From: a bacterium
Lineage (GTDB): Bacteria; SZUA-182; DTGQ01; JBLIRR01
Length of the DNA stretch: 64,000 bases
Assembly (NCBI GenBank): GCA_049472395.1
Contig: JBLIRR010000009.1
Coordinates: 59,710-123,709 of the forward strand
Direction of reading: 5' to 3'
Under the pieces are notes generated by a model. The model had not been told where the DNA came from and did no database searches. It saw only the letters and a program-made list of their open reading frames with translations. A program made the translations under genes and the position numbers. Position 1 is the first letter of the stretch; each line of letters opens with the position of its first letter. Positions 31,112 to 58,489 of the stretch are shown here, one piece after another.

Positions 31112-32942
31112 GTGATATCTCCTGATAAATTTGTTCAGCCTCTGGCAGGAAACAGGGATTTAATCCCTGAACCCTGAAAAGCCAACAGCCTCCCCTGCAT
31201 CGGGAAAGGTGTGAACAGCGTTTACATTCATCGGGTAGAGATGATGGAACCTTACCTCGAAAGTCAGCAAAACCTCTCGCCCAGATGTTTTTCAAAGAGG
31301 AGGTAAGAAAATTCCCTTCTTCTCGCCCTACACTCCCCGGAACAGCACAACCAGTCACATCTCCTTCTGAGTTTAAACAGAAGGTATTCCAGCCAGAGCC
31401 ACATGAAAATGGCTGAGCGCGCACAAGAGATTCCAGCGGGCCCAGATAACCGAAAGCCTCGCTAAGTTCAACCATAAATCCCCTCCGCCGGGCCTCGAGG
31501 ACAAATCGGAATGCCTGTTTAACCAGCTCAGGTGTATTTCTCTCTGGTGCTCCATTGCGATACAGAAGCGGCTGAAGCTGTAATCTTCGTGCTCCGCAAC
31601 GAAACACCTCTTCTGTGAGCTGTGAAAGTTCACGGATATTCTCTTCTAATAGAATAGTGGTGACACTGATAGAGGGAACGCCGACATCATGGAAAAATTC
31701 AATGGATCGAATTCCTCGCTCATACGCATTATTGCTTTTGCGAATCCGATCTTGTGCGTCTCTGTATCCATCGAGAGTAATTGCGACAGAATCGAAGTGT
31801 GCCTGCTCCAATGCGGCAAGATGATCCTCAGTTGCCTGCCCATTGGTTGTTAAGCCGACTTTTATCCCTTTCTGGTGGGCATAATGGGTGATATCAAATA
31901 TGTCCCGGCGAAGCAGAGGCTCGCCCCCGATAATAGAGAGAAACTCACACCCCAGGGAAGCAAGCTCATCTATTGCTTTGAGAACCTGACGTGTAGTTAA
32001 TTCTTTGGGATTGGCCTGCTTTGATGTAGTATCGCAATGACTGCAGTTGAATTGACACCTGTCCGTGCTTAACCATTGAACAAACTGCGGCATTTTCGAT
32101 TGGGCAGGGAAGTCCTGAAATGATGGCGCTTCTGTGTTCTGCCTGCTCGAGCCTTTTTCTTGCCTGCTATGCTCCGGGCCCTTCTTTTCAGGGCTGTAAT
32201 GCTTAAAGGCGCTCAGGAGGTCTAATGGAAAAGGAAAAACAATAGTAGAGCCTTTTTGAACAGACATATCTCTCATGGTTTGAAGGTAACGCAATTGTAA
32301 GCTCTGGGGATTATCACTAAGAATTTTGCCCGCTTTTACTAAAGTCTGGGCAGCCTGGTATTCCCCTTCCGCATCAATGATCCTTGCTCTTCTCTCTCGT
32401 TCAGTTTCAGCCTGTTTCGCCATAACACGTTTCATCTCTTCAGGCAGGGTTATTTCTTTTATCTCGACAATGGGGATACTGATTCCCCAATCACTGGTAT
32501 GATCACTTATCACCTGCTGCAGTTCCGTATTAATTTTTTCTTGCTGGCATAGCAAATCATCCAGATTCACCTGGCCAAGTATACTGCGCAACGTTGTCTG
32601 AGCGATAAGAAAGGTTGATTGGTAAATATTTTGAATCCTTATGATTGCCCGGGCTGGATCGGTAATTTGGAAATAGACCACCGCATCCACAGTGACCGGT
32701 ACATTGTCCCGTGTCATGATCTCTTGGCGAGGCACATCTATGGAGACGAGCCTGAGATCGACTTTTCTGACTCTATCAACGAGCGGGATGAGGAAGATTA
32801 ATCCGGGCCCCTTGCTGCTGTGCAATTTCCCGAGGCGAAACACGACTACCCGTTCATATTCTTTCAATATCTTGAATGTTGAGGTGAAAAGAGCGCCAGC
32901 AGCGATGATTAATAGAAGAATTTTTATAAGTCCAAGATACAT
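31059..32942 (-). CDS. Fusion protein: N-terminal SPFH/band-7 (stomatin/prohibitin-like) domain + radical SAM/SPASM domain
   Basis: N-terminal TM plus an SPFH signature (YERVVVFRLGKL...VSIDVPRQEIMTRDNVPVTVDAVVYFQITDP...AETERERRARII). Then WLSTDRCQFNCSHCD (CxxxCxxC) and SPASM-type C-terminal cysteines (CGSGWNTFCL...GCAV...CKRCSHLSRCRGGCW). Confidence 0.7.
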   Translation of the reverse strand: MYLGLIKILLLIIAAGALFTSTFKILKEYERVVVFRLGKLHSSKGPGLIFLIPLVDRVRKVDLRLVSIDVPRQEIMTRDNVPVTVDAVVYFQITDPARAIIRIQNIYQSTFLIAQTTLRSILGQVNLDDLLCQQEKINTELQQVISDHTSDWGISIPIVEIKEITLPEEMKRVMAKQAETERERRARIIDAEGEYQAAQTLVKAGKILSDNPQSLQLRYLQTMRDMSVQKGSTIVFPFPLDLLSAFKHYSPEKKGPEHSRQEKGSSRQNTEAPSFQDFPAQSKMPQFVQWLSTDRCQFNCSHCDTTSKQANPKELTTRQVLKAIDELASLGCEFLSIIGGEPLLRRDIFDITHYAHQKGIKVGLTTNGQATEDHLAALEQAHFDSVAITLDGYRDAQDRIRKSNNAYERGIRSIEFFHDVGVPSISVTTILLEENIRELSQLTEEVFRCGARRLQLQPLLYRNGAPERNTPELVKQAFRFVLEARRRGFMVELSEAFGYLGPLESLVRAQPFSCGSGWNTFCLNSEGDVTGCAVPGSVGREEGNFLTSSLKNIWARGFADFRGKVPSSLPDECKRCSHLSRCRGGCWLFRVQGLNPCFLPEAEQIYQEISHALYTEAHEGKSEVLPG

Positions 32943-34008: not shown

Positions 34009-35157
34009 CTACTTTTCAATCAATGCGAGAAAATGATCAACAAGAAAAGGATTGAAGGTGGTGCCTTTTTCTTCTTTGAGTATTTCTAATATTACCTCCC
34101 GGGGCTTCGGTCCTTGGTAGGGACGTTTGCTTCGCATGGCATCGAATACATCTGAGATGGAAATGATCTGACTTACAATATTCGGCTTCCAGTTTTCCCT
34201 GATTTTGGGGTAACCGGTTCCGTCAAATCTTATGTGATGCTCAAGGGCGCTAAGCACGGCAATCTTGGGAACTTCTTCAAGCCGTAATATATAGCGAGCG
34301 CCCTTAACCGTATGGGTCTCTATGATGGCTCTTTCCTCAGGGGTAAGCTTTCCCGGTTTGGTGATGATTTCATTGGGAATAAATAATTTCCCTGAATCAT
34401 GAAGGATTGAAGCGATCCCTATATTGTATAAATGATCCCCTTTAAAACCAAGAGATTGCGCCTGACTCATAGTTAATATACACACATTAATAACATGGGT
34501 AAAGGTATACTCATCAGATGATTTTAAGGATGCCAATATACGAAAGGGATTGATGCCTTGGGCAAATGCCTTGACAAATTCTTGGATCATATCATCGATA
34601 CCTTGGATTTCTATCTTTTTATAATTCTGTATGCGGTAATAAAGCTCTTTTAATTCGTCAAGCTTGCTGTCTCTCAGCATGATTAATTCCTGAATCTTCT
34701 CTTCCTCGTTTGATTCCGAGAGAGAATCTTTACCATGAGCCTTATTTTTATCAATCTTAAGTTCTACCTTGCCGATTTTAATAAACTTGCTGGCATGTAT
34801 GGAGCCGCTCTCAAGTGTTGAGAATTTCTGGATTAAATCTTGAAACTCTATTTTGGGGATACCTTCAATGAAGGTAAGTCTCTCGATCGAATTTTCTTTC
34901 AAGATACTGATGAATTTTTGTGTAGAGTGCTCGCTTGATGAAGAAAAGCAACTGTTGTTTACAATCAAATCATTATCAACCAAAAAAAAGGTTATCTCAG
35001 GGCTCAAATGGAGCAGGTCCGAAAGATCCGTATATGCATTCTCGAGAAAGCGCATTGTCTGTGGATGATTAAGTGAATAAAAGCGGGCATTGGCAATTGT
35101 TGAAGTAAACTTGATAATTACCTGTGATAAGGCTTTTTCATATGCTAAGTCCGGCAT
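34009..35157 (-). CDS. HD-GYP domain c-di-GMP phosphodiesterase-like protein with N-terminal domain of unknown function
   Basis: HD motif ILHDSGK. HHIRFDGTGYPK (GYP). Confidence 0.8.
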   Translation of the reverse strand: MPDLAYEKALSQVIIKFTSTIANARFYSLNHPQTMRFLENAYTDLSDLLHLSPEITFFLVDNDLIVNNSCFSSSSEHSTQKFISILKENSIERLTFIEGIPKIEFQDLIQKFSTLESGSIHASKFIKIGKVELKIDKNKAHGKDSLSESNEEEKIQELIMLRDSKLDELKELYYRIQNYKKIEIQGIDDMIQEFVKAFAQGINPFRILASLKSSDEYTFTHVINVCILTMSQAQSLGFKGDHLYNIGIASILHDSGKLFIPNEIITKPGKLTPEERAIIETHTVKGARYILRLEEVPKIAVLSALEHHIRFDGTGYPKIRENWKPNIVSQIISISDVFDAMRSKRPYQGPKPREVILEILKEEKGTTFNPFLVDHFLALIEK

Positions 35158-35247
35158 GCTGACCTTTTAATTGAATGTTACGTTGTTGATTCATGAACGG
35201 TCTTCTATTATATTATCGGCATAACTCACGGATATCTTCTGCTTTTT

Positions 35248-37482
35248 TTATTGTCTCGCCATAAGTTTTGTGCATGCCGCGCGGATTCTCTCATCATTTG
35301 ATTTTTTTCCAATAGCAAGGAGTGTGGTGAGCGTGTGTGGCGGATAGTGGTAAAGAGATTCAAACAGAACCGCTTTCATCTTTAAATGACTTTTTGGATG
35401 GATGGTAAAAAAAGACCGGGCAAGTTTTTCAAGGGCCGGTAGAGCACAAGGATCACCTATCTGTCCAAGTGCTTTGATAATTTTTTCATTTTTTATATAG
35501 TATTCTTCAAATAATATGAAGCGTTTTATTAGTGAGACAAGATCCATGGCAACATCTCTAATCCGATATTTTCCTGCCTGGAGAATCGCATGGTTATATT
35601 CGTCAGGATTATTCGACCGAATTGCATTGCGAAGCTGACGGATTCCCCATGGATCTTTAAAGGTGAGGAGCGTGATGAGGGCCTCAATGCGAATATTTTG
35701 GTCCCAATGTTTGCACAGGGGCATCAAATAGGGCGTAAGTTCCTTATTTCCCATTGTGCGAAGAAGAAACAGGATATTCTGCACAGATCCTACTTTACTA
35801 CTGTTAAGCATTGTTTTTGCGTGATCCACAGTTGCGTGGCCAAACCCTTGTAATATCTTAAAGATTATATCTCCTTCATCAATAAATTCCTGCGAAGCAT
35901 AGACTTGGAGGAGATAGGGAATCACCACTGGTCCGAGTGATATAATAAAATCATGCGCATCTTTGTTCTCCTCGTGTGACACTTTATTAAAGCATGTAAC
36001 CGCTTTTGACACTATCTGGGAATCCTTGAATCCTTCAAGAGCCTCCTGTGCCGCAGATCTGAGGGCCTGCCGTGGTTTCTCAGTGCTGTGCCTGGCGAGT
36101 GTAGCAAATAATTCCAAAAGGAAGGTGAATTCACCCATCTCAATGAGTGAGGGGAAAGTGCGCACGAGCTTTTTAGCAAACTCTCTATATTCATCATCTT
36201 GAATGTCCTCTTCCTCCATAAAGGTGATTAAGATACGGGCAAATCGCGCATCGATACAAGTATCTTCAAGGGTTTCAAGATACTCATCAATTGAAAATCC
36301 ATGACGGTCTTTGAATAATCCTTGTCTTGGCTCATTAGTCAGATATTTGATCAGGTTTTCATATTCTGAGATAACATATTTTTCATATTCTTCCTGTTTA
36401 AATAAATTCTGTAATTCCTCTGAGCGCTCTTCGGCAGCTCTTTCGGAAGGGAGTGGATCAGGGGTCTTTTTTGTAAGCCTGGTGTCAGTGTCATCCTTTG
36501 TTTGTGATAACTTTTGAACAAGTGCCATGAGAGAAGAAGATATTTCTTCACCCCTTTTATTGGCCTCTATGAGCATTTCAATAACAAGATCTTGAGATAA
36601 ATGATTCAGAAATGCCTCCCTCTGGTTCGCATTCTTAGCTGATGAGCAGTGTTTAAAGGTGGTTGCAAGAAACTGTTTTTTTAGTTCCGGTTTGAGTTGT
36701 TGCATAAGAGTATTGAGCTTTTCAAAAATCGGCGAGTTCCTCCGATCCATACGTTGTTTCATATCTGCTTCATGAAGGTGCCTGGTGATAATATTTTCAT
36801 AACTTTGGAGCGCAGCGTTTGTGTCAATTTTATACTCATTAATAAAGTATGCAAGTTGAGCGGGATTAATCTGCTTCAAATCCCTGAGAGATAATCCATC
36901 CTCTGATTCCGTGAGTGTATCTGTGAGGAGATGAGCGACAAAATCATGCCAGATTCCCGCCTCATTTTTAATGTCTGCTTTTTCCTTTATTATCTCTGCC
37001 TCTTCAGTAAGATGGAATTTACTGTAGTCGAGTAACTGGATTTTGATGTGAAGAAACCCTTTATCTTCAATAGCTTTCTCAATGCCGCCCATTGATTGCA
37101 GGTTTTCTCGCGTGCGTGAGATAAGGTTGAGGAAGAAGAAAAGTTCCTCTTTGTCAATACCTTGATAAAACGTGATCCCTGCAATGCCGTGCTCACTTAA
37201 AGCAGTTGCGAATTCTTTATACACAGGATTTTTTTTATCAAGATAGCCTGATCCTACAAGCAGTGTGTCCTTTGCAATGCCCAGGGTAATTTCAGGGGTG
37301 AGCTCAAATATTTTGATGAGGATCTCATGTGCTCGTTCGTTGCTCATTTTCACTTGAATATGATCAGCCGGGTAAATCAATACATTTTTTCGTGCAATAT
37401 TAAGTTCAATAAGAGCTTGTGCCAAATGCTTGGTATCGAGGGGCACCTCTTTTGAGACGTTGTGCTCATGTATATCGATCAT
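35248..37482 (-). CDS. Large cytoplasmic protein with C-terminal HEAT-like repeats, function unknown
   Basis: 744 aa with coding-like composition. C-terminal repeats of the HEAT/PBS-lyase type (…NIRIEALITLL…, …DPCALPALEKLA…). Upstream of HD-GYP in the same orientation. Confidence 0.45.
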   Translation of the reverse strand: MIDIHEHNVSKEVPLDTKHLAQALIELNIARKNVLIYPADHIQVKMSNERAHEILIKIFELTPEITLGIAKDTLLVGSGYLDKKNPVYKEFATALSEHGIAGITFYQGIDKEELFFFLNLISRTRENLQSMGGIEKAIEDKGFLHIKIQLLDYSKFHLTEEAEIIKEKADIKNEAGIWHDFVAHLLTDTLTESEDGLSLRDLKQINPAQLAYFINEYKIDTNAALQSYENIITRHLHEADMKQRMDRRNSPIFEKLNTLMQQLKPELKKQFLATTFKHCSSAKNANQREAFLNHLSQDLVIEMLIEANKRGEEISSSLMALVQKLSQTKDDTDTRLTKKTPDPLPSERAAEERSEELQNLFKQEEYEKYVISEYENLIKYLTNEPRQGLFKDRHGFSIDEYLETLEDTCIDARFARILITFMEEEDIQDDEYREFAKKLVRTFPSLIEMGEFTFLLELFATLARHSTEKPRQALRSAAQEALEGFKDSQIVSKAVTCFNKVSHEENKDAHDFIISLGPVVIPYLLQVYASQEFIDEGDIIFKILQGFGHATVDHAKTMLNSSKVGSVQNILFLLRTMGNKELTPYLMPLCKHWDQNIRIEALITLLTFKDPWGIRQLRNAIRSNNPDEYNHAILQAGKYRIRDVAMDLVSLIKRFILFEEYYIKNEKIIKALGQIGDPCALPALEKLARSFFTIHPKSHLKMKAVLFESLYHYPPHTLTTLLAIGKKSNDERIRAACTKLMARQ

Positions 37483-37601
37483 AATGTAATGATTTAATCT
37501 ATTTTTAAAAATTAGATATATATAAATATAGTATCGGTTAAAAATTGATTTTTCTTGATTTGCAAAGAATAAATGAATATGATATTCCGAAAGAATAGAA
37601 A

Positions 37602-39332
37602 GTGCTCATAAAAGAAAGGAGAGGGCTGATGAAAATAAAAGTCGTAAGTGTAATATGTGTAGTTGTATTATTACTCTCAATCCATCCATCCATCGCTCAG
37701 ACCATAGAGTATTTGGATGCGAAATCTCTGAAAGAAGTTATACATGTGAAGGCGAAGCCGGTCTCTGAAGGCACGTTGCGTGTCCCCTTGATTACATGGG
37801 GAGGTGATACCGCAACAATCCTTGCCTTGACAAGCGGGATTTTTAAGGAAGAGGGATTGAATGTTGAATTGTTTGCGGAAAATAATTTTCCAAAACAGAT
37901 TGAGGAATGTCTTTCTGGAAAATCACCTTACCTGCGCGGCACCATGGGTATGATTAATGCTGCATCTGAAGTATTTAACGAGCAAGGCAAAGACCTTACT
38001 GTCATTTACCAGATGACATGGTCGACGGGTGGTGATGCGATGGTCGTGCGCCCTCAAAAGAATCTCGCTAATATCCGCACCGTGGCCCTTCAGTTATATG
38101 GACCACATATGGATTATGCGGCCAATCTATTCAGAAATAATCGGCGGCTTTCCGAGGTAAAATTCAAATGGCTTAAGGAATTGTCACTCCCGACGTACAG
38201 TACGGATAAAATAGTTGATCCTGTCAGTGCTTTTGCTAGTCAAGCGTCGCTTGATGCGGTTATGTGTATTATTCCTGACGCGCTCGCACTCACTTCAGGA
38301 GGAAAGGAGGGCACCGGCGCTGCCGGATCGGTAAAGGGCGCCACAATATTGCTTTCAACCAAGACCGCGTCGCGCATTATTGCAGATGTCTATGCAGTGC
38401 GGAAAGATTATCTGGATACGAATCGAAAAAGCGTTGAGAAATTCGTTCATGCTCTTATGAGAGGTGAGGAGGCACTGAGAGACTTATTAAAAAATAAAAA
38501 AACAGAGCAGGCAAAATATCAGCAGCTCTTAACAAAGTCTGCAGAATTATTGCTTGATGCCCCCCAGGCTACTGCCGATGTGGAAGCGTTGCTTGCAGAT
38601 TGTGAATTTGTTGGGTATACGGGCAATCTAAGTTTTTTTACTGGTAAAGGGACAACTCGCACCCTCAATACGCTCACAGGTGAGATTCAATCTGCATTTA
38701 TTCAATTAAAGCTTTTAAATAAAGAAGTGCCGATTGCTTCGGCTGAATGGGACTATAATACAATGGCGGAAGGATTAAAATATGCCACAAGCATACCGGC
38801 CTCTAAGACAAAATTTGATAAAAAAAAGGTTGCGGCAAAAGTGGAGAAGCAAATAACTGTTGAGCCGACAACCTGGGCAGAAGAGGGGATGCTGTTTGAG
38901 GTTGAGATCAACTTCAAGCCGAACCAGAGTGATTTCACAGAAGCAGAATATGCAAAGGATTTTCAAAAAGCGATTCAGATTGCGCAAACCTATGGAGGCT
39001 CCCTTGTGGTGATTGAGGGACATTCTGATCCGCTTGGCATTCTAAAGGCTCGTCAGAAAGGACAATCTCAAGTGGAGCTTAGCATGATGGAGCAGCAAGC
39101 GCGAAACCTTTCACTGAAACGCGCAGATTCGGTGAGGAAAAGCTTCTTAAAGTTTTCAAACAACAAAGGATTGGTAATAGATGACTCCCAGTTTATAGCT
39201 GTGGGTATAGGCGTAAAATACCCAAAATTTAATCCGCCAAGGACAAAGGATGAATGGGCTGCAAACCGTCGAGTCGTCTTTCGAATAAAAGAAGTGGAGG
39301 CGGAACTCGAAGAATTCACTCCCTTAAACTAA
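37602..39332 (+). CDS. Periplasmic SsuA/NMT1-like substrate-binding-fold protein fused to C-terminal OmpA-like peptidoglycan-binding domain
   Basis: Signal peptide ...SIAQT. SBP-like pattern LRVPLITWGGDTATILALTSGIFKEEGLNVEL. OmpA-like GHSDPLG...LSLKRADSV...NRRVVF. Confidence 0.6.
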   Translation: MLIKERRGLMKIKVVSVICVVVLLLSIHPSIAQTIEYLDAKSLKEVIHVKAKPVSEGTLRVPLITWGGDTATILALTSGIFKEEGLNVELFAENNFPKQIEECLSGKSPYLRGTMGMINAASEVFNEQGKDLTVIYQMTWSTGGDAMVVRPQKNLANIRTVALQLYGPHMDYAANLFRNNRRLSEVKFKWLKELSLPTYSTDKIVDPVSAFASQASLDAVMCIIPDALALTSGGKEGTGAAGSVKGATILLSTKTASRIIADVYAVRKDYLDTNRKSVEKFVHALMRGEEALRDLLKNKKTEQAKYQQLLTKSAELLLDAPQATADVEALLADCEFVGYTGNLSFFTGKGTTRTLNTLTGEIQSAFIQLKLLNKEVPIASAEWDYNTMAEGLKYATSIPASKTKFDKKKVAAKVEKQITVEPTTWAEEGMLFEVEINFKPNQSDFTEAEYAKDFQKAIQIAQTYGGSLVVIEGHSDPLGILKARQKGQSQVELSMMEQQARNLSLKRADSVRKSFLKFSNNKGLVIDDSQFIAVGIGVKYPKFNPPRTKDEWAANRRVVFRIKEVEAELEEFTPLN

Positions 39333-39344
39333 GGAGGATTTTCG

Positions 39345-40112
39345 ATGAAAAAATATCTATTATACCTGTGCCTTCTCTGTTGTATCCTGATGATGAATGT
39401 TTCCTGTGAGGCACCACAAAAGCAAAGCCGGAACAAAAAAAAAGAGATCAATAGAGAAATAGATCTTGCAAAGATTAAACGCATAGACATTCCCATTGAT
39501 GAAAGTCTTGTCACGAGTGAGGCATCACTGACGCGTAATTTTTACTTTATTTTTGACGGCAGTGGAAGCATGCAGGACGCGCCGGGAGGTGCGTGCAGGG
39601 GAGATCAACGATTTGGCAGCAAACTTGAGGGTGCCAAGTGGGCCGTGCAAGAATTTATGAAAAAGGTACCTGATACTATTAACATAGCTCTCTATGTGTT
39701 TGATACCTACTATGGGAGACGGGAGGTTGTGCCGCTTGGAACAAATAATAGGCAGGAATTTATTCGGGCGGTGAATACAATTCGCCCCGGAGGTATGACG
39801 CCGCTTGCCGACGCAATAAAATTTGCCACTGATCAGCTTGTGAGCCAATATAAGAAACAGCTCGGATATGGGGAATACAGAATAGTCGTTATCACGGACG
39901 GTATTGCTGAGGATATACCAGAGGCTGTTATTTACTCTGCAAAGCGAGGCATGCCGATTTACGCTATAGGATTGTGTATTGGCGATGACCATCCGTTGCG
40001 GCGATATGCTCTTTCATACAGAGCAGCGGATAATTTTGCCGATTTGGCAAAAGGATTGGAAGAGACCCTGGCTGAGTCGGAGGTGTTTGATCCCACGGAA
40101 TTCAAATTTTAA
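39345..40112 (+). CDS. Lipoprotein with von Willebrand factor A (VWA) domain
   Basis: Lipobox MMNVSC. MIDAS-like FIFDGSGSMQD plus downstream T/D residues. Confidence 0.7.
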   Translation: MKKYLLYLCLLCCILMMNVSCEAPQKQSRNKKKEINREIDLAKIKRIDIPIDESLVTSEASLTRNFYFIFDGSGSMQDAPGGACRGDQRFGSKLEGAKWAVQEFMKKVPDTINIALYVFDTYYGRREVVPLGTNNRQEFIRAVNTIRPGGMTPLADAIKFATDQLVSQYKKQLGYGEYRIVVITDGIAEDIPEAVIYSAKRGMPIYAIGLCIGDDHPLRRYALSYRAADNFADLAKGLEETLAESEVFDPTEFKF

Positions 40113-40127
40113 GTGAGGTAAAGCGCG

Positions 40128-41678
40128 GTGAAAAAATCAACTGTAGGCGCACTATTACTTATAATCATAGGCATTATCGGCGTTGTCGGCTATTCATTTT
40201 TAAAACCCTGGCTTTTTGAAAAATCCATTCGGAAGACCTCGGATGCATCAAAGACATACCAAACCATACGAATAGGTGGGGACAATTACCTCGGATACTG
40301 GTTCATCACATCGCCTGAGATGCGCAAATTTGCTGCACGAAGGGGTTTGCAGATCGATTTTACCGATGATGAAGGGGCTTACAGGGAACGCTTAGAAAAA
40401 TTTGCAAAGGGGCAGTATGAGTGTATTGTGTTGCCGGTGAATTCCTATCTTGAGCATGGCGCCCCACATAGCTTCCCTGGTGTGATCGTCGCCTCAATCT
40501 CAGAATCAAAGGGTGCGGACGGGATTGTTGCCTTCTCCGATATCCTTTCTACCGGCACAATCAATGACCTTAATGATGCAAATATTAAAATTGTCTATAC
40601 AAGTGAATCTCCGAGTTCTTTCTTGCTCGATTTAACTATTGTTGATTTTGATCTTTTTCAACTCCAAAACAATGACGCCTGGCGTGTTGAAGTTGCAAGT
40701 TCCAAGGAAGTATATACCCGCGCGAAAAAAAATGAAGGAGATGTGTTTGTACTGTGGGAGCCTGATTTATCAAAAGCTATAGAACTGCCAGGAATGAAAT
40801 ATCTTTGGGGCTCTGATAAATTCGCGGGGTATATTTTAGATGTGTTCGTCTTCAACCGTAAGTTTTTCGAAAAGCAAAGTGATACAGTGCGTGATTTCCT
40901 CAATGCTTATTTCCGTGTAATGAGCATCTATAAAAATAATAGGGATCAAATGGTGAAGGAAATGAGCAAATCAACCAGGTTGAAAAAGGAGGTGATTGAG
41001 GATATGCTCAATAAGATAGAATGGTTTGATTTGCATGAGAACAGCAGTATGCAGTTTGGCATTACCTCCCGGGTTGGTGTACCGGTCAATGATGGCCTTA
41101 TTACGACTATTATTGCCTGTACCGAGGTAATGATAAAAACCAAAAAATTTGATAAGGACCCGCTTCAAGGAAATCCCTATTTGATTACCAACAGTCAAAT
41201 TATTGAGGAATTATCCAAGACGGGTATTGTCTCTGCCCTGGCTGGGTCCACAGGAGATTCCGTAGATTTTAAGCCTCTTGATGATGCAGGTTGGGAAGCC
41301 CTTCGCGAGATTGGGACGCTCCGTGTTGAGCCGATTACCTTCCAGAGATGGGATAATCTGATGGATGCGGCGGGAAAAAAGATCGTGGACAAGATTGCCC
41401 AGATGCTCGAGCATAATTACCCTCACTATCGGATAGTCATTCGGGGCCACACCGAACCAGGTGGAGATGAGAGGGAGAATGAAAAATTATCAATGCAGAG
41501 GGCCCAGACTGTAAGGCAATATTTAATTGCAGTACATACTATTAATCCTCACCGGCTGAGGGCAGAGGGGAGGGGGTCGAAATCGCCGCCAGCGCAAAGG
41601 CCGGGTGAGTCTCCACGAGCGTATCGCTATCGTTTATCACGGGTTGAGTTGGTGGCTTTTGAGGAAAATCTTTTGTAA
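40128..41678 (+). CDS. Membrane-anchored SsuA/NMT1-like substrate-binding-fold protein fused to C-terminal OmpA-like domain
   Basis: N-terminal TM helix. IRIGGDNYLGYWFITSPEMRKF...GVIVASISESKGADGIVAF. OmpA-like YRIVIRGHTEPGGDERENEKLSMQRAQTVRQYL...RVELVAF. Confidence 0.6.
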   Translation: MKKSTVGALLLIIIGIIGVVGYSFLKPWLFEKSIRKTSDASKTYQTIRIGGDNYLGYWFITSPEMRKFAARRGLQIDFTDDEGAYRERLEKFAKGQYECIVLPVNSYLEHGAPHSFPGVIVASISESKGADGIVAFSDILSTGTINDLNDANIKIVYTSESPSSFLLDLTIVDFDLFQLQNNDAWRVEVASSKEVYTRAKKNEGDVFVLWEPDLSKAIELPGMKYLWGSDKFAGYILDVFVFNRKFFEKQSDTVRDFLNAYFRVMSIYKNNRDQMVKEMSKSTRLKKEVIEDMLNKIEWFDLHENSSMQFGITSRVGVPVNDGLITTIIACTEVMIKTKKFDKDPLQGNPYLITNSQIIEELSKTGIVSALAGSTGDSVDFKPLDDAGWEALREIGTLRVEPITFQRWDNLMDAAGKKIVDKIAQMLEHNYPHYRIVIRGHTEPGGDERENEKLSMQRAQTVRQYLIAVHTINPHRLRAEGRGSKSPPAQRPGESPRAYRYRLSRVELVAFEENLL

Positions 41679-41705
41679 CATAATATAAATAAAAAGGTGA
41701 GTTGA

Positions 41706-42560
41706 ATGCGGAACCGATGCCTGAAAAGACCGACGGCAAAACCAGAAAAATTGCCCACTGTTGCTGATTTTTCATCCGCTGCTGTGCAGAAAGCCATACT
41801 CTCTGAAACCCTTCAGCATCCGATAACGTTGTATCCGGCAGGTATCTCGTTGGTGAGTCTCCTCTACATGGGCCTTGTGAGCTTTAATCCAACGTCATTT
41901 GCCATTTGCTTCGGGAGTGGCTTATTTAGTCTTGGCTCCTGGGTATATAATTTTTTCCTTAGGGGCAAGGATTTTGAATCGAAATATATTAGAAACCTCC
42001 AGAATGCTTTGGCACAACAGACCGAAAAAGCCTTAAGGGACTTAAAAAGCGATCTTCTTGATAATGAGTGCCCGGAGGCAGCTGAGCAACTTGATAAATT
42101 AAAGGAAAAATTCGAAAGTCTTGATGAACTGTTAAGGGAGAAGCTTGATGAAAAAGAACTCACCTTCGGACGATATCATGGCATTGGGCAACAGGTCTAT
42201 TTTTCAGGGATCGATAACCTGCAGGATGCTGCAGCAGCATTAAAAAGCATTAGCGCCATTGATCCGGCGCGTATAAAGAAGTTGCTTAAAAAACTTCGAA
42301 GCATCAAAGAACCTGATGGGGTAACGTTGAAGGAAATGGAGACATTAGAGGAGAGACAAAAACTAAGGGATGATCAACTTCGGAAAGTGAAACAGCTCAT
42401 GATTCAGAATGAGGCCGCCATGACTCAATTGGATAAAACCACCATTGCCATTGCTGAAATGGATACGATGAAGGGCCAGTCTGACGTAGATATGGAAACA
42501 GCCATGACAGAGCTTGCACAGATTACGGAACGGGCAAAGGATTATTCAAATAGCGTATAA
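41706..42560 (+). CDS. Membrane protein (2 TM) with long coiled-coil region
   Basis: Two hydrophobic helices near residues 55-100, followed by a heptad-rich charged region. Confidence 0.4.
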   Translation: MRNRCLKRPTAKPEKLPTVADFSSAAVQKAILSETLQHPITLYPAGISLVSLLYMGLVSFNPTSFAICFGSGLFSLGSWVYNFFLRGKDFESKYIRNLQNALAQQTEKALRDLKSDLLDNECPEAAEQLDKLKEKFESLDELLREKLDEKELTFGRYHGIGQQVYFSGIDNLQDAAAALKSISAIDPARIKKLLKKLRSIKEPDGVTLKEMETLEERQKLRDDQLRKVKQLMIQNEAAMTQLDKTTIAIAEMDTMKGQSDVDMETAMTELAQITERAKDYSNSV

Positions 42561-42615
42561 AATTTTTATTCCGGCGCAGCCGGCAATATTATCTTTACAA
42601 GGGGGAGGATAATTT

Positions 42616-43821
42616 ATGGAAGCACAAGGAAACGTAACAGTCAAAGAGAGAGCTTCAACCGGCTTGATTGTGCCGGATGAAGTCGCAGTGAAACAGGAGC
42701 TGCAGCTTGTGGACCCAACATCCATATCAACGCAGGCCGTGGATTCGAATTTAGAAAAACAGGCTGATGATTTCATTGAGATGCTACTGAGCGGTGATAT
42801 AGATGATCAGAAAAAAAAGATGGCTGTTGATCAGATGGGTGCAAAGACCCAGAAAATAGCGGCGCAACGAAGCAAGATGCTTCAGCAGCCAATTAATAAC
42901 CTCGTAAAAACGGGTGAAGATGGGGGGCCTGTTGCCAAGTCACTTGTAGACCTGAAAATGCAGGTAGAAGCGCTTGATCCGGTAAAATTTGATTTTGCTC
43001 CCGGATGGTTTTCACGATCACTTGGATTCCTGCCTTTTATCGGCACGCCACTTAAAAAATATTTTACCCAATATGAAAGTGCTCAAACTGTTATTGACGC
43101 TATTATTAAATCTCTCGAGAAGGGGAGGGACCAATTAAGGAGAGATACGATTACCTTGTCAGCGGACCAAAAAAGTATGCGGGAGATGACCATACGGTTA
43201 GAGCGGGCTATTCAGCTTGGCCAACTTCTTGATCAAAAACTCCAGTATAAACTTGACAGGGATATCCCCCCCGAAGATCCGAAATACAATTTTATATCTG
43301 ATGAACTATTATTTCCTCTGCGCCAGCGGGTAATGGACTTGCAGCAACAGTTGGCGGTGAATCAACAGGGTGTCCTTGCAACAGAGATCATCATTCGAAA
43401 TAACAGAGAGCTTATGCGAGGCGTGAACCGGGCATTAAATGTCACCGTTAACGCCCTGCAAGTGGCGGTCACCGTTGCTCTGGGACTTGCCAATCAAAAA
43501 ATCGTGTTAAAGAAGATCGAGGCCATTAATAAGACCACATCAGACCTCATTGCAAATACCGCCCAACAGTTGCGGATGCAAGGCGCCCAGATTCATAAAC
43601 AAGCCTCTCAGGCAGCGCTCGATATGAATTCATTGGAGAAGGCTTTTGCAGATATAAATGCAGCGTTAGATGATATTTCAAAATTCCGGAGAGAGGCACT
43701 TCCGCAAATGGCTAATTCAATATTGCGCATGAACACTCTGACTGACCAGGCTGAAGAAAGTATCAGTAAGATAGAGCAGGGGACACAACTGCAATCAGAA
43801 ATTATTATTGATGTAGAATAA
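42616..43821 (+). CDS. TelA-like (toxic anion resistance family) protein
   Basis: About 400 aa, soluble and highly alpha-helical/coiled-coil. Overall pattern reminiscent of TelA/KlaA/YceH from memory. No diagnostic motif confirmed. Confidence 0.4.
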   Translation: MEAQGNVTVKERASTGLIVPDEVAVKQELQLVDPTSISTQAVDSNLEKQADDFIEMLLSGDIDDQKKKMAVDQMGAKTQKIAAQRSKMLQQPINNLVKTGEDGGPVAKSLVDLKMQVEALDPVKFDFAPGWFSRSLGFLPFIGTPLKKYFTQYESAQTVIDAIIKSLEKGRDQLRRDTITLSADQKSMREMTIRLERAIQLGQLLDQKLQYKLDRDIPPEDPKYNFISDELLFPLRQRVMDLQQQLAVNQQGVLATEIIIRNNRELMRGVNRALNVTVNALQVAVTVALGLANQKIVLKKIEAINKTTSDLIANTAQQLRMQGAQIHKQASQAALDMNSLEKAFADINAALDDISKFRREALPQMANSILRMNTLTDQAEESISKIEQGTQLQSEIIIDVE

Positions 43822-43840
43822 AAACAAGGGGGAGATATAA

Positions 43841-44917
43841 ATGCGTGAATCACGATTTTTTACTTTATTTTTAATAAGCATTATTACTATTATGGTGGTC
43901 GCTACAATTCCTCTGCATTCTTTTGCGCGACCGAAAAAATACACCGTTGCATGGTCAATTTATGCTGGCTGGATGCCCTGGGATTATGCGGGATATGCAG
44001 GTATTCTCAAGAAATGGGCAGATAAATATGGCATAGCCATTGATCTTGTAAGGATGGATTATATCCCATCGGTAGAGGCTTTTGTCGCAAAAAAGGTAGA
44101 TGGGTGCGTTATGACGAATATGGAATGTCTTGATATGCCGGCATCCTCTGGCATTGATTGCACGGTGCTTATCATGGGGGATTTTTCAAATGGCAATGAT
44201 GCTATTTTGACGCGCGATGGGATCGGGATCGCGGGATTGAAGGGCAAGGATATTTACCTGGTGGAGCTTTCCGTATCTCACTATCTTCTGGCACGCTGTC
44301 TTGAAATGAATGGCTTAAAGGAGAAAGATGTGAGGATAGTAAATACCTCTGACAGCGATATCGGACCGGTTTTTCTCTCAAATAAATCACAAAAGGCAGT
44401 CGTCACGTGGAATCCGATAGTTATGGAAATAGAGCAGGTGCCAGGAATAAGTAAAATATATACCTCAGCGAATATCCCTGGTGAAATCCTCGATCTTATG
44501 GTTGTAAGCACCGATGTACTTAATAAGAATCCTGATTTTGGTAAGGCTCTCACCGGCGCATGGTATGAAGTTATGGATATGATGTCGAAAAGAGGACCTG
44601 TGGCGGATAAAGCCCTCACATATATGGCTGAATCCGCAGGTACGTCACTTGTGGAATATAAGAGGCAACTTGCAACAACAGCAATGTTCTATACCCCTCA
44701 ATCGGCGACTGATTATACAAAGGGCAGTGAGATCAAAGAAAAAATGAATTTTGTGCGAAAATTCTGTTTTGATCATGGATTGCTCGGTGAGAATGCCCCT
44801 TCAATGGACATTGTCGGTATTTCCTATCCTGATGGCACCATTCAGGGGGATAGGAAGAATATTAAAATGCGGTTTGACAGCACCTATATGCAGCGTGTCG
44901 CTGATGAGCACCTTTAA
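43841..44917 (+). CDS. ABC transporter periplasmic substrate-binding protein, SsuA/TauA/NMT1 family
   Basis: Signal peptide. KKYTVAWSIYAGWMPWDYAG... pattern typical of nitrate/sulfonate/bicarbonate-family SBPs. Followed by permease and ATPase genes. Confidence 0.75.
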   Translation: MRESRFFTLFLISIITIMVVATIPLHSFARPKKYTVAWSIYAGWMPWDYAGYAGILKKWADKYGIAIDLVRMDYIPSVEAFVAKKVDGCVMTNMECLDMPASSGIDCTVLIMGDFSNGNDAILTRDGIGIAGLKGKDIYLVELSVSHYLLARCLEMNGLKEKDVRIVNTSDSDIGPVFLSNKSQKAVVTWNPIVMEIEQVPGISKIYTSANIPGEILDLMVVSTDVLNKNPDFGKALTGAWYEVMDMMSKRGPVADKALTYMAESAGTSLVEYKRQLATTAMFYTPQSATDYTKGSEIKEKMNFVRKFCFDHGLLGENAPSMDIVGISYPDGTIQGDRKNIKMRFDSTYMQRVADEHL

Positions 44918-44934
44918 AGGTAAATGGGCCAAAG

Positions 44935-45744
44935 ATGCAATTCTTTAAGATCAATGCTCGGCCACGCCGTACAAGTGCGCTTATCATCTCCTCTCTCTTG
45001 TTTATTATCTGTATCACTACGTATTTTGTGGGCTCCTACTTAAGGCATAAGGAGAATCCTCAGGATAAAGTTATGCCCACAATTTCCGAGATGGTACAGG
45101 GATTGTATCGGTCAGCATTCACGCGGGATCGAAAGGGAGAATATAGACTTCTTGTTGACAGTGTGGCCAGTGCCAGAAGGTTCTTTATCGGAACAGCGCT
45201 GCTTTTTCTTGCCATGATACTTGGTCTTAATATGGGCGTGTTCCCCTATATCGAGGAATTATTTTTGGGGTTTACACTATTTTTCGATAAAGTACCCGCC
45301 CTTGCCTTGCTTCCGATCTTATTTATTGTATTTGGTCTTGGAGAGGTCTCCAAGATCGCTCTTATTGTGGTTGGGGTGTTCCCGACGATTATTTTAGATA
45401 CGTATTTAAGGGCAAAGGAAGTGCCGAGAGAGCAAATTATCAAAGGATTGACTCTAGGGGCCAGTGATTTTGAGATCGCCTATCGGATTGTCCTCCCTCA
45501 AATATTTCCCAAAGCCCTTGATACGATAAGATTGAATTTTAAAGCGGTTATGCTCTATTTGATCGCCGGCGAATCACTCGCTGCCACGGTTGGCCTTGGG
45601 TATCGGATCTTCGTTGTGAGGCGCTACATTGCCATGGACATAATTATTCCCTATGTCATATGGATGAGCCTTCTGCTTTTTATTACTGATATGGCGGTCC
45701 GGATATGGATTAATAAACGCTATCCCTGGCTTGATAAAGAGTAA
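44935..45744 (+). CDS. ABC transporter permease (SsuC/TauC-like)
   Basis: Six hydrophobic helices. EAA-like loop region (...AKEVPREQIIKGLTLGAS...). Confidence 0.8.
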   Translation: MQFFKINARPRRTSALIISSLLFIICITTYFVGSYLRHKENPQDKVMPTISEMVQGLYRSAFTRDRKGEYRLLVDSVASARRFFIGTALLFLAMILGLNMGVFPYIEELFLGFTLFFDKVPALALLPILFIVFGLGEVSKIALIVVGVFPTIILDTYLRAKEVPREQIIKGLTLGASDFEIAYRIVLPQIFPKALDTIRLNFKAVMLYLIAGESLAATVGLGYRIFVVRRYIAMDIIIPYVIWMSLLLFITDMAVRIWINKRYPWLDKE

Positions 45745-45749
45745 AGACA

Positions 45750-46673
45750 ATGGATGATTCACGGCACTATATACTCTATCTTGAGAATATTTATCAGAAA
45801 TATCCGGATAAGGAAGGAAGATTCAGAACGATACTCAATGATATTGATCTGAGGGTCAGGGAGGGAGAGTTCTTAACGGTTGTCGGGCCGACCGGATGTG
45901 GCAAATCCACGCTCCTTCGATTGATTTTAGGATCAGAGCGCCCATTTAGCGGAAATCTCCTGGTGAATGATTCCAAGGTGAGCAGCCCTGACAGAAATCG
46001 AGGAATCGTGTTTCAAAAGTATTCTCTCTTTCCTCACCTTACTGTGCTTGAAAATGTCATCTTCGGGCTTCAACTTGAGAAATTCACTCTCCCCGGACGT
46101 CTCCTAGGGCCTATTCACTTTCGGAAAAAGTCAATGGAATTTAAAAAGCAGGCGATTGAGTATTTAAAGCGGGTGGGCATGGATAACGATGTGAATAAGT
46201 ATCCCTATCAATTATCAGGCGGAATGCGCCAAAGGGTGGCCATTGTGCAAGCCTTAATAATACAGCCTGCCCTTTTGCTCATGGATGAACCCTTTGGAGC
46301 TCTCGATGATGGAACACGTCAGGTGATGCAGCTTTTTATGCTTGAGCAGTGGGAAAAGACAAAAATGACCATATTCTTTGTCACTCATGATCTTGAGGAA
46401 GCATTATTCCTCGGAACCCGTGTTATTGTCCTGTCTCCATATTATAAAACCGACTGTGAAGAGTGTGAAGGCTCAAAGATAGTAACCGATAAGGCCATTT
46501 CAGGGAGCCACCCCAAACCGACTGATTTCAAATATACCCCAGAATTTAATAAGCTGCTTGAGCAGATACGAAGAGATGGCCTCGATCCATCCCACACACA
46601 ACATATCAGCCAATTCGACCTCAGCCACGCTGATTCCTACCGTTCAGTGACAGGCGATGAATGGAGAAGATAA
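45750..46673 (+). CDS. ABC transporter ATP-binding protein (SsuB/TauB-like) with C-terminal extension
   Basis: Walker A GPTGCGKST. Signature LSGGMRQRV. Walker B LLMDEPFGALD. Confidence 0.85.
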   Translation: MDDSRHYILYLENIYQKYPDKEGRFRTILNDIDLRVREGEFLTVVGPTGCGKSTLLRLILGSERPFSGNLLVNDSKVSSPDRNRGIVFQKYSLFPHLTVLENVIFGLQLEKFTLPGRLLGPIHFRKKSMEFKKQAIEYLKRVGMDNDVNKYPYQLSGGMRQRVAIVQALIIQPALLLMDEPFGALDDGTRQVMQLFMLEQWEKTKMTIFFVTHDLEEALFLGTRVIVLSPYYKTDCEECEGSKIVTDKAISGSHPKPTDFKYTPEFNKLLEQIRRDGLDPSHTQHISQFDLSHADSYRSVTGDEWRR

Positions 46674-46811: not shown

Positions 46812-47456
46812 ATGCAAAAGATTGTAGAATTAATTTTAGAAAAAAGTCCAGTTGACTATATTACAACAGATTTGTTGCATATGATTTTAGGGGGATCAAA
46901 AGATAGGTTATATAGTATTGTGAAACGAGCTTTAGCTTCAAAGGACTTGGTGAGAGTGCGTAGAGGACTTTATGTTCTTGGCGAAAAATACCGTCGTTTT
47001 AAAATTTCGGAAGTCATTTTGTCTCAAAGAATTTATTCTCCTTCATATTTAAGCTTTGAATATGCGTTATCATTTCATGGATTGATTCCGGATATAGTTC
47101 AAAGAGTATTATCCGCCTCATATTATAGATCACAAGTATTTGAAACTCAGGTTGGGATTTATGAATACTATCATATTCCTTTAAAACCATTTTTTTTAGG
47201 TGTCCAAAGGCATAAAAATCAATTTGGAAATGGATTCTTGATTGCTGGACCAGAACGAGCGCTTTGTGATTTGATTTATAAAAAGAAAATAAAATGGGTA
47301 AATATATCTGTACTTGTGCAGGGTTATAGAGTTGAAGAAGAAGAACTATTAAAATTTAATCAAAAATTATTAATTGATGTTGCTGATAATTATCCTGTGA
47401 TTTTTGTTAAGAAATTTATTAACAAATTAGTGAAGGAAATTAATAATGTCTTATAG
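46812..47456 (+). CDS. AbiEi-family type IV antitoxin (wHTH + C-terminal domain)
   Basis: About 214 aa, directly upstream of an AbiEii-like gene and overlapping it by 11 bp. The N-terminal region is compatible with a winged helix. Family-level call from gene context and length. Confidence 0.55.
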   Translation: MQKIVELILEKSPVDYITTDLLHMILGGSKDRLYSIVKRALASKDLVRVRRGLYVLGEKYRRFKISEVILSQRIYSPSYLSFEYALSFHGLIPDIVQRVLSASYYRSQVFETQVGIYEYYHIPLKPFFLGVQRHKNQFGNGFLIAGPERALCDLIYKKKIKWVNISVLVQGYRVEEEELLKFNQKLLIDVADNYPVIFVKKFINKLVKEINNVL

Positions 47457-48294
47457 GTCACTGATTGAGGAGCGTCTACGAGAATCTGAATACCGATCTG
47501 AATTAGAAGAAGAGAATGCATTAAAACAAATCTTTCAAGAAATTATTTTATATGCACTTTATGAAGCCCGATTTTTTAATATTGCGGCATTCCATGGTGG
47601 GACAGAACTTCGGATTTTAAGAAATTCGAATAGATTCTCAGAAGATTTAGATTTTGCGTTGTATGTAAAAAACAAAGCATTTGATTTTTCTCTTATGACA
47701 AAACAGGTTAAAGAAAGTTTGTTCAACTGGGAGGTAGAAATGGAGGTTATTGATAAGTCAAAAGCAGGCAATGTTATAAAAAAAATGTTGCTAAAAGATA
47801 CTTCCATGGCTAAGTTACTGATTCTTAATCCTCTATATGATAAACGAAAAACTGTAAGCGTTAAGGTTGAATTAGATACACATCCCCCAGAAGGAATTAA
47901 CACCGAAATTAAATACTTAGAATATCCTGTTACATTTCCTGTGACAAGCTTCGACTTATCTACAAGTTTTTCTGGTAAGTTACATGCATTATTATGTAGA
48001 AATTATATCAAGGGACGTGATTGGTATGATTTTATTTGGTACACCCAAAAAAAACCTGAATTAAACATTAAATTTATTAGAAATGCATTTTTTCAACAAG
48101 GCCCATGGGAAAAACAGAATATTGAGATAGATAAAGAATGGATTATAGAAAAATTGAAACAAAAGATCAATGAGATAGATTGGAAACAGGCAAAAGAGGA
48201 TGTCCGACCATTTTTGAAGCATGATTATGTTGGAGGACTTGAACACTGGAGTAAAGCATATTTTCAACAAGCCCTTATGAGATTATATGAGTAA
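47446..48294 (+). CDS. AbiEii/AbiGii-family nucleotidyltransferase toxin (DUF1814)
   Basis: FHGGTELRILRNSNRFSEDLDF matches the conserved GG[ST]xL...R.S.DlDf nucleotidyltransferase core of AbiEii. Confidence 0.75.
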   Translation: MSYRSLIEERLRESEYRSELEEENALKQIFQEIILYALYEARFFNIAAFHGGTELRILRNSNRFSEDLDFALYVKNKAFDFSLMTKQVKESLFNWEVEMEVIDKSKAGNVIKKMLLKDTSMAKLLILNPLYDKRKTVSVKVELDTHPPEGINTEIKYLEYPVTFPVTSFDLSTSFSGKLHALLCRNYIKGRDWYDFIWYTQKKPELNIKFIRNAFFQQGPWEKQNIEIDKEWIIEKLKQKINEIDWKQAKEDVRPFLKHDYVGGLEHWSKAYFQQALMRLYE

Positions 48295-58209: not shown

Positions 58210-58489
58210 AAATCATAATTATATAGAGGCGATTTTTTTTTTCAAGAAAGATGATAATTTTTTCGCAATTTTCATTTTGGATTATAGATTATATAAGAAA
58301 TGCCGGCAATTTTTCAGGCATTTTTTTTGCATAAAATTTTTTTTAGTACTTAGAAAATGAAAGAATAGTATAATTTCGTTGTCTTTTCATAAAAGATTAA
58401 AGTAACAAATAGCGCATGAGCGCATGACTTTTTTGTTAAAATTAATAAATAAAATGTATATATACATTTCAAAAAAAGGGGCGGAGAGA

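Follow-up and report, generated by a model that had tools for sequence, protein, structure and literature searches.

What is the function of an operon in which binding-protein folds fused to OmpA-like domains are combined with a VWA protein, a TelA protein and an ATP-binding cassette (ABC) importer? The question is raised by positions 37602-46673 of a 64,000-nucleotide stretch of bacterial DNA (GTDB lineage SZUA-182; assembly GCA_049472395.1, contig JBLIRR010000009.1, positions 59,710 to 123,709 of the forward strand), which was analyzed as a whole and is referred to below as the window. The original prediction for this region was that of an unusual nine-gene operon. We found only eight open reading frames (ORFs), co-directional on the + strand and named g1 to g8, which agrees with the eight products that the title of the prediction itself listed. 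The features are as follows.

37483-37628, + strand: upstream intergenic region with a likely promoter and the ribosome-binding site AAAGGAGAGG
37602-39332, + strand: g1, secreted protein with an SsuA/NMT1-type fold and a C-terminal OmpA-like domain
39345-40112, + strand: g2, predicted periplasmic, membrane-tethered VWA protein with a lipoprotein-like N-terminus and a metal-ion-dependent adhesion site (MIDAS)
40128-41678, + strand: g3, 516 amino acids, with an N-terminal inner-membrane helix, an SsuA-type fold and an OmpA-like domain
41706-42560, + strand: g4, 284 amino acids, with an inner-membrane hairpin of two helices and a cytoplasmic helical bundle of around 200 residues
42616-43821, + strand: g5, 401 amino acids, cytoplasmic TelA-family protein at position 5 of the operon
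43841-44917, + strand: g6, 358 amino acids, periplasmic binding protein of GimA/TIGR03427 (guanidine) type that serves the ABC importer
44935-45744, + strand: g7, permease of the ABC importer, NitT/TauT family
45750-46673, + strand: g8, ATPase of the ABC importer and last operon gene in the window

The answer that we favour, with a probability of around 50%, is that the products assemble into an envelope-spanning complex for the capture and import of a guanidinium-type solute, to which g4 and TelA are coupled as a membrane-stabilising module. That the genes belong together is indicated by their order. In a scan of one genome per species, in which ORFs were classified against the window proteins, 47 loci were recovered (loci are numbered below with an L), and the order g1-g2-g3-g4-[position 5]-g6-g7-g8 was found in around 40 species representatives of more than 10 phyla, so that the conservation in relatives that had been proposed as a check is indeed there. 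The carriers include, within the Acidobacteriota, the Aminicenantes, the Holophagae, Acanthopleuribacter pedis and Sulfidibacter corallicola, and furthermore Poribacteria, Zixiibacteriota, KSB1, Planctomycetota, Verrucomicrobiota (Haloferula), Victivallales, Fibrobacteria and Nitrospinota; several of them derive from marine or sponge-associated samples or strains. Identity across the phyla is 37-70% for most operon proteins (around 55-70% outside the Verrucomicrobiota), g4 being far more divergent (down to around 16%). One locus (L057, 3154-12154) is permuted yet complete, with the order permease, ATPase, g1, VWA, g3, g4, TelA and binding protein. Within the window, the gaps from g1 to g8 measure 12, 15, 27, 55, 19, 17 and 5 bp, and no terminator-like sites were found on the + strand between the operon genes. 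The earlier description of co-directional genes with gaps below 30 bp is thus right for the direction and for six of the gaps, but not for the gap between g4 and g5 (55 bp). Given that the gene order is kept in so many species and phyla, the operon genes form one functional unit, and their synteny goes far beyond chance adjacency.

The main variation between the loci concerns position 5. In the window this position is taken by a TelA protein (PF05816), an assignment of the original prediction that stands firm, with 237.6 bits against a cut-off of 30 and a match to profile positions 10-331 of 332; a search by sequence for a solved TelA structure found none. In the majority form of the operon, position 5 encodes a PspA/IM30-like coiled-coil protein of around 275 amino acids, and a ninth gene specifies an AAA+ ATPase of around 575 amino acids with a classical AAA domain (PF00004). 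The minority form has TelA at position 5 and no ATPase gene, and was found in the window, L018 (Zixiibacteriota), L023, L028, L033 (Fibrobacteria), L034 (KSB1), L054 and L057; the closest TelA-type relatives of the window organism are metagenome-assembled genomes of Zixiibacteriota, Fibrobacteria and KSB1. In those TelA-type loci whose contig runs past g8 (window, L023, L033, L034 and L057) no AAA+ gene follows g8, whereas in loci of the PspA-like type the AAA+ gene is usually present. Between TelA and the alternative position-5 protein no homology was detectable (hhalign probability 0.3%); a homologous relation was therefore rejected and the swap is taken to be a non-homologous one. The best Pfam match of the coiled-coil protein is PspA_IM30 (PF04012), which was obtained for 7 of 23 members over profile positions 30-214 of 220, with E 1.7e-4 to 5e-3. 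The profile of this protein yielded weak matches to Vipp1/PspA in the PDB (E 1-5), and its C-terminal tail (MLAAR...RPKI) is conserved.

Two observations on individual carriers may be added here. Acanthopleuribacter pedis KCTC 12899 contains two complete copies of the nine-gene form, on scaffolds 2 and 6 (L030 and L031), with the same ORF coordinates and identities, which could represent a recent duplication or a duplication in the assembly. A metagenome-assembled genome labelled Methanosarcinales (L050) encodes very divergent versions of g1, g2, g3, g6, g7 and g8 together with an AAA protein (23-40% identity); no homolog of g4 or of the position-5 protein was found there by BLAST, and either remote variation or mis-binning of the contig could explain this locus.

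The exchange at position 5 extends to g4. The g4 family, with 1231 representatives at E<=1e-3, has this operon as its context in every case examined, and g4 gave no match in Pfam or NCBIfam. Its AlphaFold model (predicted local distance difference test score, pLDDT, 86.8) is all-helical: two helices form a hairpin in the membrane, and a cytoplasmic bundle follows. Identity to the g4 of the window is 33-47% in loci of the TelA type and 16-29% in loci of the PspA type, whereas the similarity of g3 to the g3 of the window is comparable for both partner groups (52-59% vs 54-65%). In neighbour-joining trees the deepest split of g4 is likewise by partner, and that of g3 and g6 is between the Verrucomicrobiota and the rest. 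Moreover, the g4 proteins that occur with the AAA protein carry a conserved C-terminal motif (LExAVxAARRVExRLR...DD), which the TelA-type g4 proteins lack. Considering that g4 tracks its partner and that g3 and g6 do not, we infer that g4 and the position-5 protein (with the AAA protein, where present) have been swapped together as one cassette and are in physical contact.

The relation of g4 itself to known families was sought in two directions. An assignment as Snf7/ESCRT-III protein was not supported: searches of Pfam with 32, 30 and 106 family members gave neither a Snf7 nor a PspA match, the g4 profile retrieved only designed helical bundles from the PDB sequences, and Foldseek with the g4 model found nothing in the PDB below E 0.77, although, helical proteins being difficult to classify, these negatives do not disprove such a relation. 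An assignment as XpaC was rejected as well, as none of the 106 family members matched the XpaC model of Pfam at E<=1 and the membrane protein that adjoins the Bacillus TelA homolog (L058) is unrelated to g4; one g4 relative bears an XpaC-type name in UniRef, which is a transferred name. In the Firmicutes, the XpaC-TelA pair has been connected to envelope stress and, in Enterococcus faecium, to daptomycin tolerance (PMC6811118). The operon resembles that pair in that the TelA gene adjoins a gene for a small membrane protein whose cytoplasmic part is helical, and in that the Firmicutes pair affects membrane properties. It differs in that the g4 family matches neither XpaC nor any other Pfam model, and in that the pair of the window lies within a much larger Gram-negative envelope operon.

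The closest parallel to the majority form was mentioned in passing in an independent paper (Ravi et al., mSystems 2024, PMC11237479), in which operons with PspA, TM-Snf7 and AAA+ proteins were found to include an ABC transporter and a 'PBPB+OmpA' protein; the authors proposed an ATP-dependent membrane remodelling tied to solute transport. Their operons share with the majority variant the solute-binding fold fused to OmpA as well as both the permease and the ATPase of an ABC transporter. Also common to them are a PspA-like protein, a helical protein anchored in the membrane and a protein that has two AAA+ domains, and the AAA protein of around 575 amino acids in the majority variant fits their 'inactive AAA + AAA' in length and domain position. 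Their example, OGG56892.1 of Candidatus Handelsmanbacteria, differs in its gene order, in having a single fusion of a binding fold with OmpA, and in lacking a VWA protein and a separate binding protein; neither the Snf7-like nature of g4 nor the homology of OGG56892.1 to g4 could be confirmed. Compared to these operons, the one of the window has TelA instead of PspA and no AAA+ gene, and in the text of that paper TelA does not occur and VWA is not mentioned. By analogy, the operon would work most like the PSP/ESCRT-III-type membrane-maintenance operons that are coupled to transport (PMC11237479). Judged by its gene content, the version of the window itself falls outside the PSP/ESCRT-III-like family, because it encodes no protein of the PspA or Snf7 families. 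The statement in the original prediction that the combination had not been described therefore needs to be qualified: the general theme was noted computationally once before, briefly, and only without TelA and VWA (PMC11237479). In the literature searched we did not find the full nine-gene architecture, the VWA component together with duplicated wall-anchored binding folds that have a conserved cage, the assignment of the importer to the guanidine type, or the swap of TelA for a cassette of PspA-like protein and AAA+ ATPase.

At the level of single proteins, the profile matches place the products in the TelA, VWA, OmpA-like and SsuA/NMT1 families. The three SsuA/NMT1-type folds that were originally proposed were all recovered, two of them fused to OmpA-like domains in a secreted (g1) and a membrane-anchored protein (g3), although not every domain reached its threshold. 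In g1 the Pfam models NMT1 (26.4 bits, cut-off 20.5) and NMT1_2 (25.5 bits, cut-off 24.7) both matched, and the OmpA domain (PF00691) scored 26.1 bits, slightly below the cut-off of 27.2 (E 1.1e-5); this region aligns with that of g3 in hhalign. In g3 the OmpA domain was evident (61 bits vs the same cut-off), but no binding-protein family of Pfam matched, the fold being recognized by the NCBIfam models TIGR03427 (E 3.5e-10) and SsuA_fam (E 8.6e-8). The AlphaFold model of g3 (pLDDT 85.4) consists of a helix at residues 3-37, an SsuA-like fold and an OmpA-like domain, and its best Foldseek matches are SsuA and TauA (E 3e-13, target TM-score 0.75), in line with the predicted fusion. In hhalign, g1 and g3 align over 429 columns (97.6% probability, E 3.7e-12) and the binding folds of both align with g6 at around 97% probability; on this basis we regard g1 and g3 as paralogs along their whole length and the binding folds of g1, g3 and g6 as homologous. 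Both fusions are well conserved: g1 is 56-70% identical to its orthologs in other phyla and its signal peptide ends in ...SIA/QT, and g3 homologs of at least 57% identity, each around 516 amino acids long, make up all 120 clusters listed of 464 matches.

The OmpA-like domain of g3 also matches those of MotB, the long form of TssL and Pal/YiaD-type lipoproteins (E 1e-15 to 1e-5), and with MotB and TssL it shares the N-terminal membrane anchor. Unlike these, g3 has a complete SsuA-type fold between the anchor and the OmpA domain, and it scores below the cut-offs of those families. In OmpA-like domains, the Asp of the GH[ST]D motif and the Arg of the LSxxRA motif contact diaminopimelate. This Arg is invariant in both fusions (R507 in g1, R458 in g3), whereas the Asp is kept in g1 (H474-S475-D476) but not in g3, where the motif reads GHTE in the window and GHTG in the consensus.

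The position of g2 between g1 and g3 is constant in the syntenic loci. It was originally described as a VWA lipoprotein, and this holds up, with 49.9 bits for VWA (PF00092; cut-off 23.8), 43.1 bits for VWA_2 and an N-terminus of the signal/lipobox kind. The MIDAS motif D71-x-S73-x-S75 (DxSxS) is invariant in 33 of 33 orthologs, many of which have a canonical lipobox and others an N-terminal membrane helix. As the N-termini of g2 and of its orthologs are lipoprotein or signal-anchor sequences, the protein is predicted to be periplasmic and tethered to the membrane.

The third binding fold, g6, belongs to the importer. This had been called SsuABC-like, which is correct as to the ABC importer but misses its guanidine type. 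In g6, NMT1 scored 29.1 bits (cut-off 20.5) and TIGR03427, the NCBIfam equivalog for the 'urea-carboxylase-associated' binding protein, 482.8 bits against an equivalog cut-off of 333.9; g7 matched BPD_transp_1 (58.9 bits) and g8 ABC_tran (115.4 bits). The identity of g7 is 65-72% in most syntenic loci and lower in the most divergent ones. A related transporter is encoded on plasmid pAB510b of Azospirillum sp. B510 (L060), with identities of 51% to g6, 46% to g7 and 47% to g8, in an operon with the order UAAP1, UAAP2, urea carboxylase, allophanate hydrolase and the homologs of g6, g7 and g8. A Guanidine-I riboswitch (RF00442; L060 1685-1807; 79.1 bits vs a gathering score of 63) lies at the head of that operon. 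Just downstream of it lies an agmatinase gene.

The GimABC system of Synechocystis (Sll1080-1082) provides the reference for the ligand. Its NitT/TauT binding protein GimA binds guanidine with a KD of 97 nM, and W59, W62, F205, D135 and D233 have been proposed to form a guanidinium cage (PMC12704784). With a constant offset of 15, the residues W44, W47, D120, W190 and D218 of g6 correspond to W59, W62, D135, F205 and D233 of GimA, so that all five cage positions are present; the next-best offset matched two of the five. The cage residues are conserved in 25-30 of 30 g6 orthologs. Given the score above the TIGR03427 cut-off and the five residues, the importer is classified here as one of the GimABC/TIGR03427 guanidine type, and the complete cage of g6 makes guanidine, or a small guanidinium-type cation close to it, the most likely imported solute. 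The cage is partly retained in the wall-anchored proteins as well. In g3, hhalign places Y57, D131, W210 and D238, none of which varies among 42 sequences, at positions of the GimA-type cage of g6, the counterpart of the second cage Trp falling in a deletion of four residues. In g1 the aromatic cage positions are lost and the two Asp are retained (D145 and D262, both invariant like R507 of the OmpA motif). The operon differs from the GimABC/TIGR03427 systems in that it has no riboswitch, carboxylase or hydrolase (in the window, the upstream region of g1 included, no Rfam family was found), and its importer, unlike GimABC, shares an operon with g4, TelA, a VWA protein and wall-anchored paralogs of the importer's binding protein.

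The close kinship of the importer with nitrogen-assimilation transporters under control of a guanidine riboswitch suggests that the operon might serve nothing but scavenging, g1 and g3 acting as a wall-bound, high-affinity sink for a scarce nitrogen-rich solute that feeds g6-g8, and the VWA protein, g4 and TelA or the PspA-like protein only assembling or stabilising the machinery, without a stress function. The nanomolar affinity of GimA (PMC12704784) and the marine or sponge-associated origin of several carriers are in keeping with such a role. Nevertheless, we consider it unlikely, as in no locus examined a catabolic enzyme for the solute was linked to the operon, a PspA-like protein with a dedicated AAA+ ATPase would be a heavy cost for mere assembly, and the TelA and PspA families are elsewhere tied to envelope stress (PMC11237479, PMC6811118).

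The invariant cage positions of g3 lend themselves to another explanation, namely ligand-gated signalling, which corresponds to the tethered sensors of the original prediction and in which the wall-anchored folds would sense the ligand instead of feeding the transporter, the helix of g3 would act on g4 to switch the assembly of TelA (or of the PspA-like protein and the AAA+ ATPase), and the importer would only clear or reset the signal. A membrane-anchored and immobilised g3 is ill-suited to the shuttling of a ligand, g4, which apart from g3 and the permease is the sole integral membrane protein, co-varies with its cytoplasmic partner, and there are loci without an adjoining importer (L009 and L041). 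Then again, the operon encodes nothing that could deliver an output, be it a kinase, a cyclase or a DNA-binding domain, the importer adjoins in most loci, and the contact between g3 and g4 is a proposal only, so that we hold this option to be rather improbable.

In the envelope-spanning complex that we favour, the secreted g1 and the inner-membrane-anchored g3 would be immobilised on the cell wall through their OmpA-like domains, as follows from the fusion of each to a domain of the peptidoglycan-binding kind. The MIDAS site of g2 probably clamps a partner protein and could in this way bridge components such as g1 and g3. With four of the five cage positions invariant, g3 probably binds the ligand of the importer or a related one; g1, which has lost the aromatic residues, may bind a different ligand or have a scaffold role. 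The wall-tethered binding domains would then capture or report the periplasmic ligand beside the importer. On the cytoplasmic side, g4 would draw TelA to the membrane, and the two would assemble beneath it so as to stabilise or remodel the inner membrane at the site of the importer. In this assembly TelA would act as PspA/IM30 proteins do, with no need for the ATPase. That most relatives have a g4 variant with a PspA/IM30-like protein and an AAA+ ATPase instead argues that TelA performs a PspA-like, membrane-protective job here without an ATPase. An envelope-associated role, as the original prediction had it, is the most reasonable reading of these data.

A bolder version of the same scheme, which we deem possible but doubtful, is a ligand-gated envelope machine of a new type: the wall-tethered cage domains would sense a periplasmic cation and, via the membrane segments of g3 and g4, trigger a sub-membrane polymer that protects or remodels the membrane. 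The sensed cation could be free guanidine or another guanidinium-bearing compound, and the polymer would consist of TelA alone or of a PspA/ESCRT-III-like protein that is recycled by the dedicated AAA+ ATPase.

Several points weigh against the favoured coupling of guanidinium import to membrane stabilisation. With respect to the solute, the correspondence between g6 and GimA was set by the residue numbers quoted in PMC12704784, without an alignment to the GimA sequence. Moreover, neither a guanidine riboswitch of Rfam nor a guanidine-degrading enzyme was found with the operon in the window or in 15 related loci, and no guanidine or urea carboxylase or hydrolase was seen in the flanks. Guanidine assimilation is therefore not evidently its purpose, which may go beyond simple assimilation. 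The importer is not obligatory either, since L009 carries g1-g4 only and L041 lacks an importer. With respect to the wall, the peptidoglycan binding of g3 is assumed from the conserved Arg only, since the canonical Asp of GHTD is replaced. With respect to the membrane, the PspA_IM30 score of the alternative position-5 protein (17-22 bits) is below the gathering score of 33.9, and an hhalign comparison of this protein with the single sequence of E. coli PspA gave nothing; the contact between g4 and TelA and the protection of membranes by TelA in these lineages are both inferred.

The pairing of VWA and TelA had initially suggested a likeness to the tellurite-resistance (Ter) clusters, and hence a toxic-anion or xenobiotic stress cluster with a VWA protein (TerY/TerF-like) and TelA at its core. 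Proteins of the TerY/TerF type with a vWA domain are cytoplasmic. In both cases one cluster contains genes for TelA and for a VWA protein, TelA and the vWA protein TerF have both been described as sub-membrane components of the Ter system (PMC7824862), and genes for TelA and VWA proteins adjoin elsewhere, for example on a Sphaerotilus plasmid (NZ_CP035710). The VWA protein of the operon is, by contrast, predicted to be periplasmic and is independent of TelA, being kept in loci without any TelA, and TelA is a replaceable part that can be exchanged for a PspA-like protein. TerB, TerC and TerD were found by Pfam in none of the eight operon products, the remaining window having been scanned in part. 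The analogy thus did not survive, being largely refuted by the majority variant that lacks TelA, and we consider a Ter-like function very improbable. On the plasmid of Sphaerotilus sulfidivorans just mentioned (L059, 4698-9414), the genes encode a hypothetical protein, TelA, a vWA-domain protein of 551 amino acids and a second hypothetical protein; this is another context of TelA, and the kind of TelA-vWA pairing that the original prediction had in view.

The region downstream of the operon calls for a remark on defence. The 3' end of g8 is followed by a gap of 138 bp that contains a promoter-like site (11 of 12 positions), and then by an unrelated AbiEii toxin-antitoxin pair. The two genes overlap (46812-47456 and 47446-48294, both +); the second encodes an AbiEii nucleotidyltransferase toxin (PF08843, E 4.6e-22) and the first a product without a Pfam match that may be an AbiEi-like antitoxin. 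The pair is not kept beside the operon in other loci. The immediate adjacency of the AbiEii gene in the window, like the weak match of the OmpA domain of g3 to ZorB models (E 6e-6) and the analogy with the MotB-like anchors of Zorya or with VWA-containing systems, could point to an anti-phage or conflict system. However, none of the system-specific models of PADLOC was matched, the only hits being generic ones for MotB/OmpA and the ABC ATPase; the flanks in other loci are neither conserved nor defence islands; and the identity of 55-70% across phyla is unlike that of fast-evolving conflict systems. This is the explanation to which we give the least credence, and by its gene content the operon is neither a Ter cluster nor a known defence system.

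On the 5' side, the intergenic region 37483-37628 is common to the operon and a divergent HEAT-repeat gene. Upstream of g1 there are weak sigma-70-like matches (9/12) at 37504-37532 and 37555-37583. The GTG at 37602 is the earliest possible start of g1 (576 amino acids) and the ATG at 37629 would give 567 amino acids. The latter is likely the true start, because it is preceded by AAAGGAGAGG and results in a typical signal peptide, MKIKVVSVICVVVLLLSIHPSIA/QT. The divergent genes (34009-37482, - strand) encode a 744-amino-acid HEAT-repeat protein and an HD_5 (HD-GYP-type) protein; in the Aminicenantes locus L005 a HEAT_2 protein is likewise encoded upstream on the opposite strand, which may be a coincidence. 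Elsewhere in the window, 31059-32942 (-) encodes a 627-amino-acid fusion of SPFH/Band-7 (E 1.7e-36), radical SAM and SPASM domains, an unusual architecture, and the adjacent 30002-31111 (-) a second radical SAM/SPASM protein. The product of 58424-62476 (+; 1350 amino acids) has, besides a Beta_propel domain (PF09826, E 8e-89), LVIVD repeats and an I42 peptidase inhibitor domain of the chagasin type.

TelA is widespread and has been linked to the tolerance of tellurite and of membrane-active antibiotics. In this operon it fills the exact slot that in most relatives belongs to a PspA-like protein plus an AAA+ ATPase, a natural 'swap experiment' that points to a PspA-like membrane function. Guanidine, in turn, has been recognised as a bacterial metabolite only recently, and the operon ties an importer of the guanidine type to wall-anchored copies of its binding protein and to membrane-protection genes, which suggests either a new mode of capture for solutes in short supply or that envelope homeostasis is linked to a chaotropic cation. 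The system spans many poorly studied phyla (Acidobacteriota, Verrucomicrobiota, Planctomycetota, Poribacteria, Zixiibacteriota, KSB1 and Fibrobacteria), and its cultured carriers, Acanthopleuribacter pedis, Sulfidibacter corallicola and Haloferula species, make experiments feasible. If the operon were indeed a ligand-gated machine, TelA would stand in functionally for PspA and its ATPase without being homologous to them, the 'tellurite resistance' protein would obtain its first mechanistic context, and a pair of a Vps4-like ATPase and an ESCRT-III-like protein would be wired to a bacterial periplasmic receptor.

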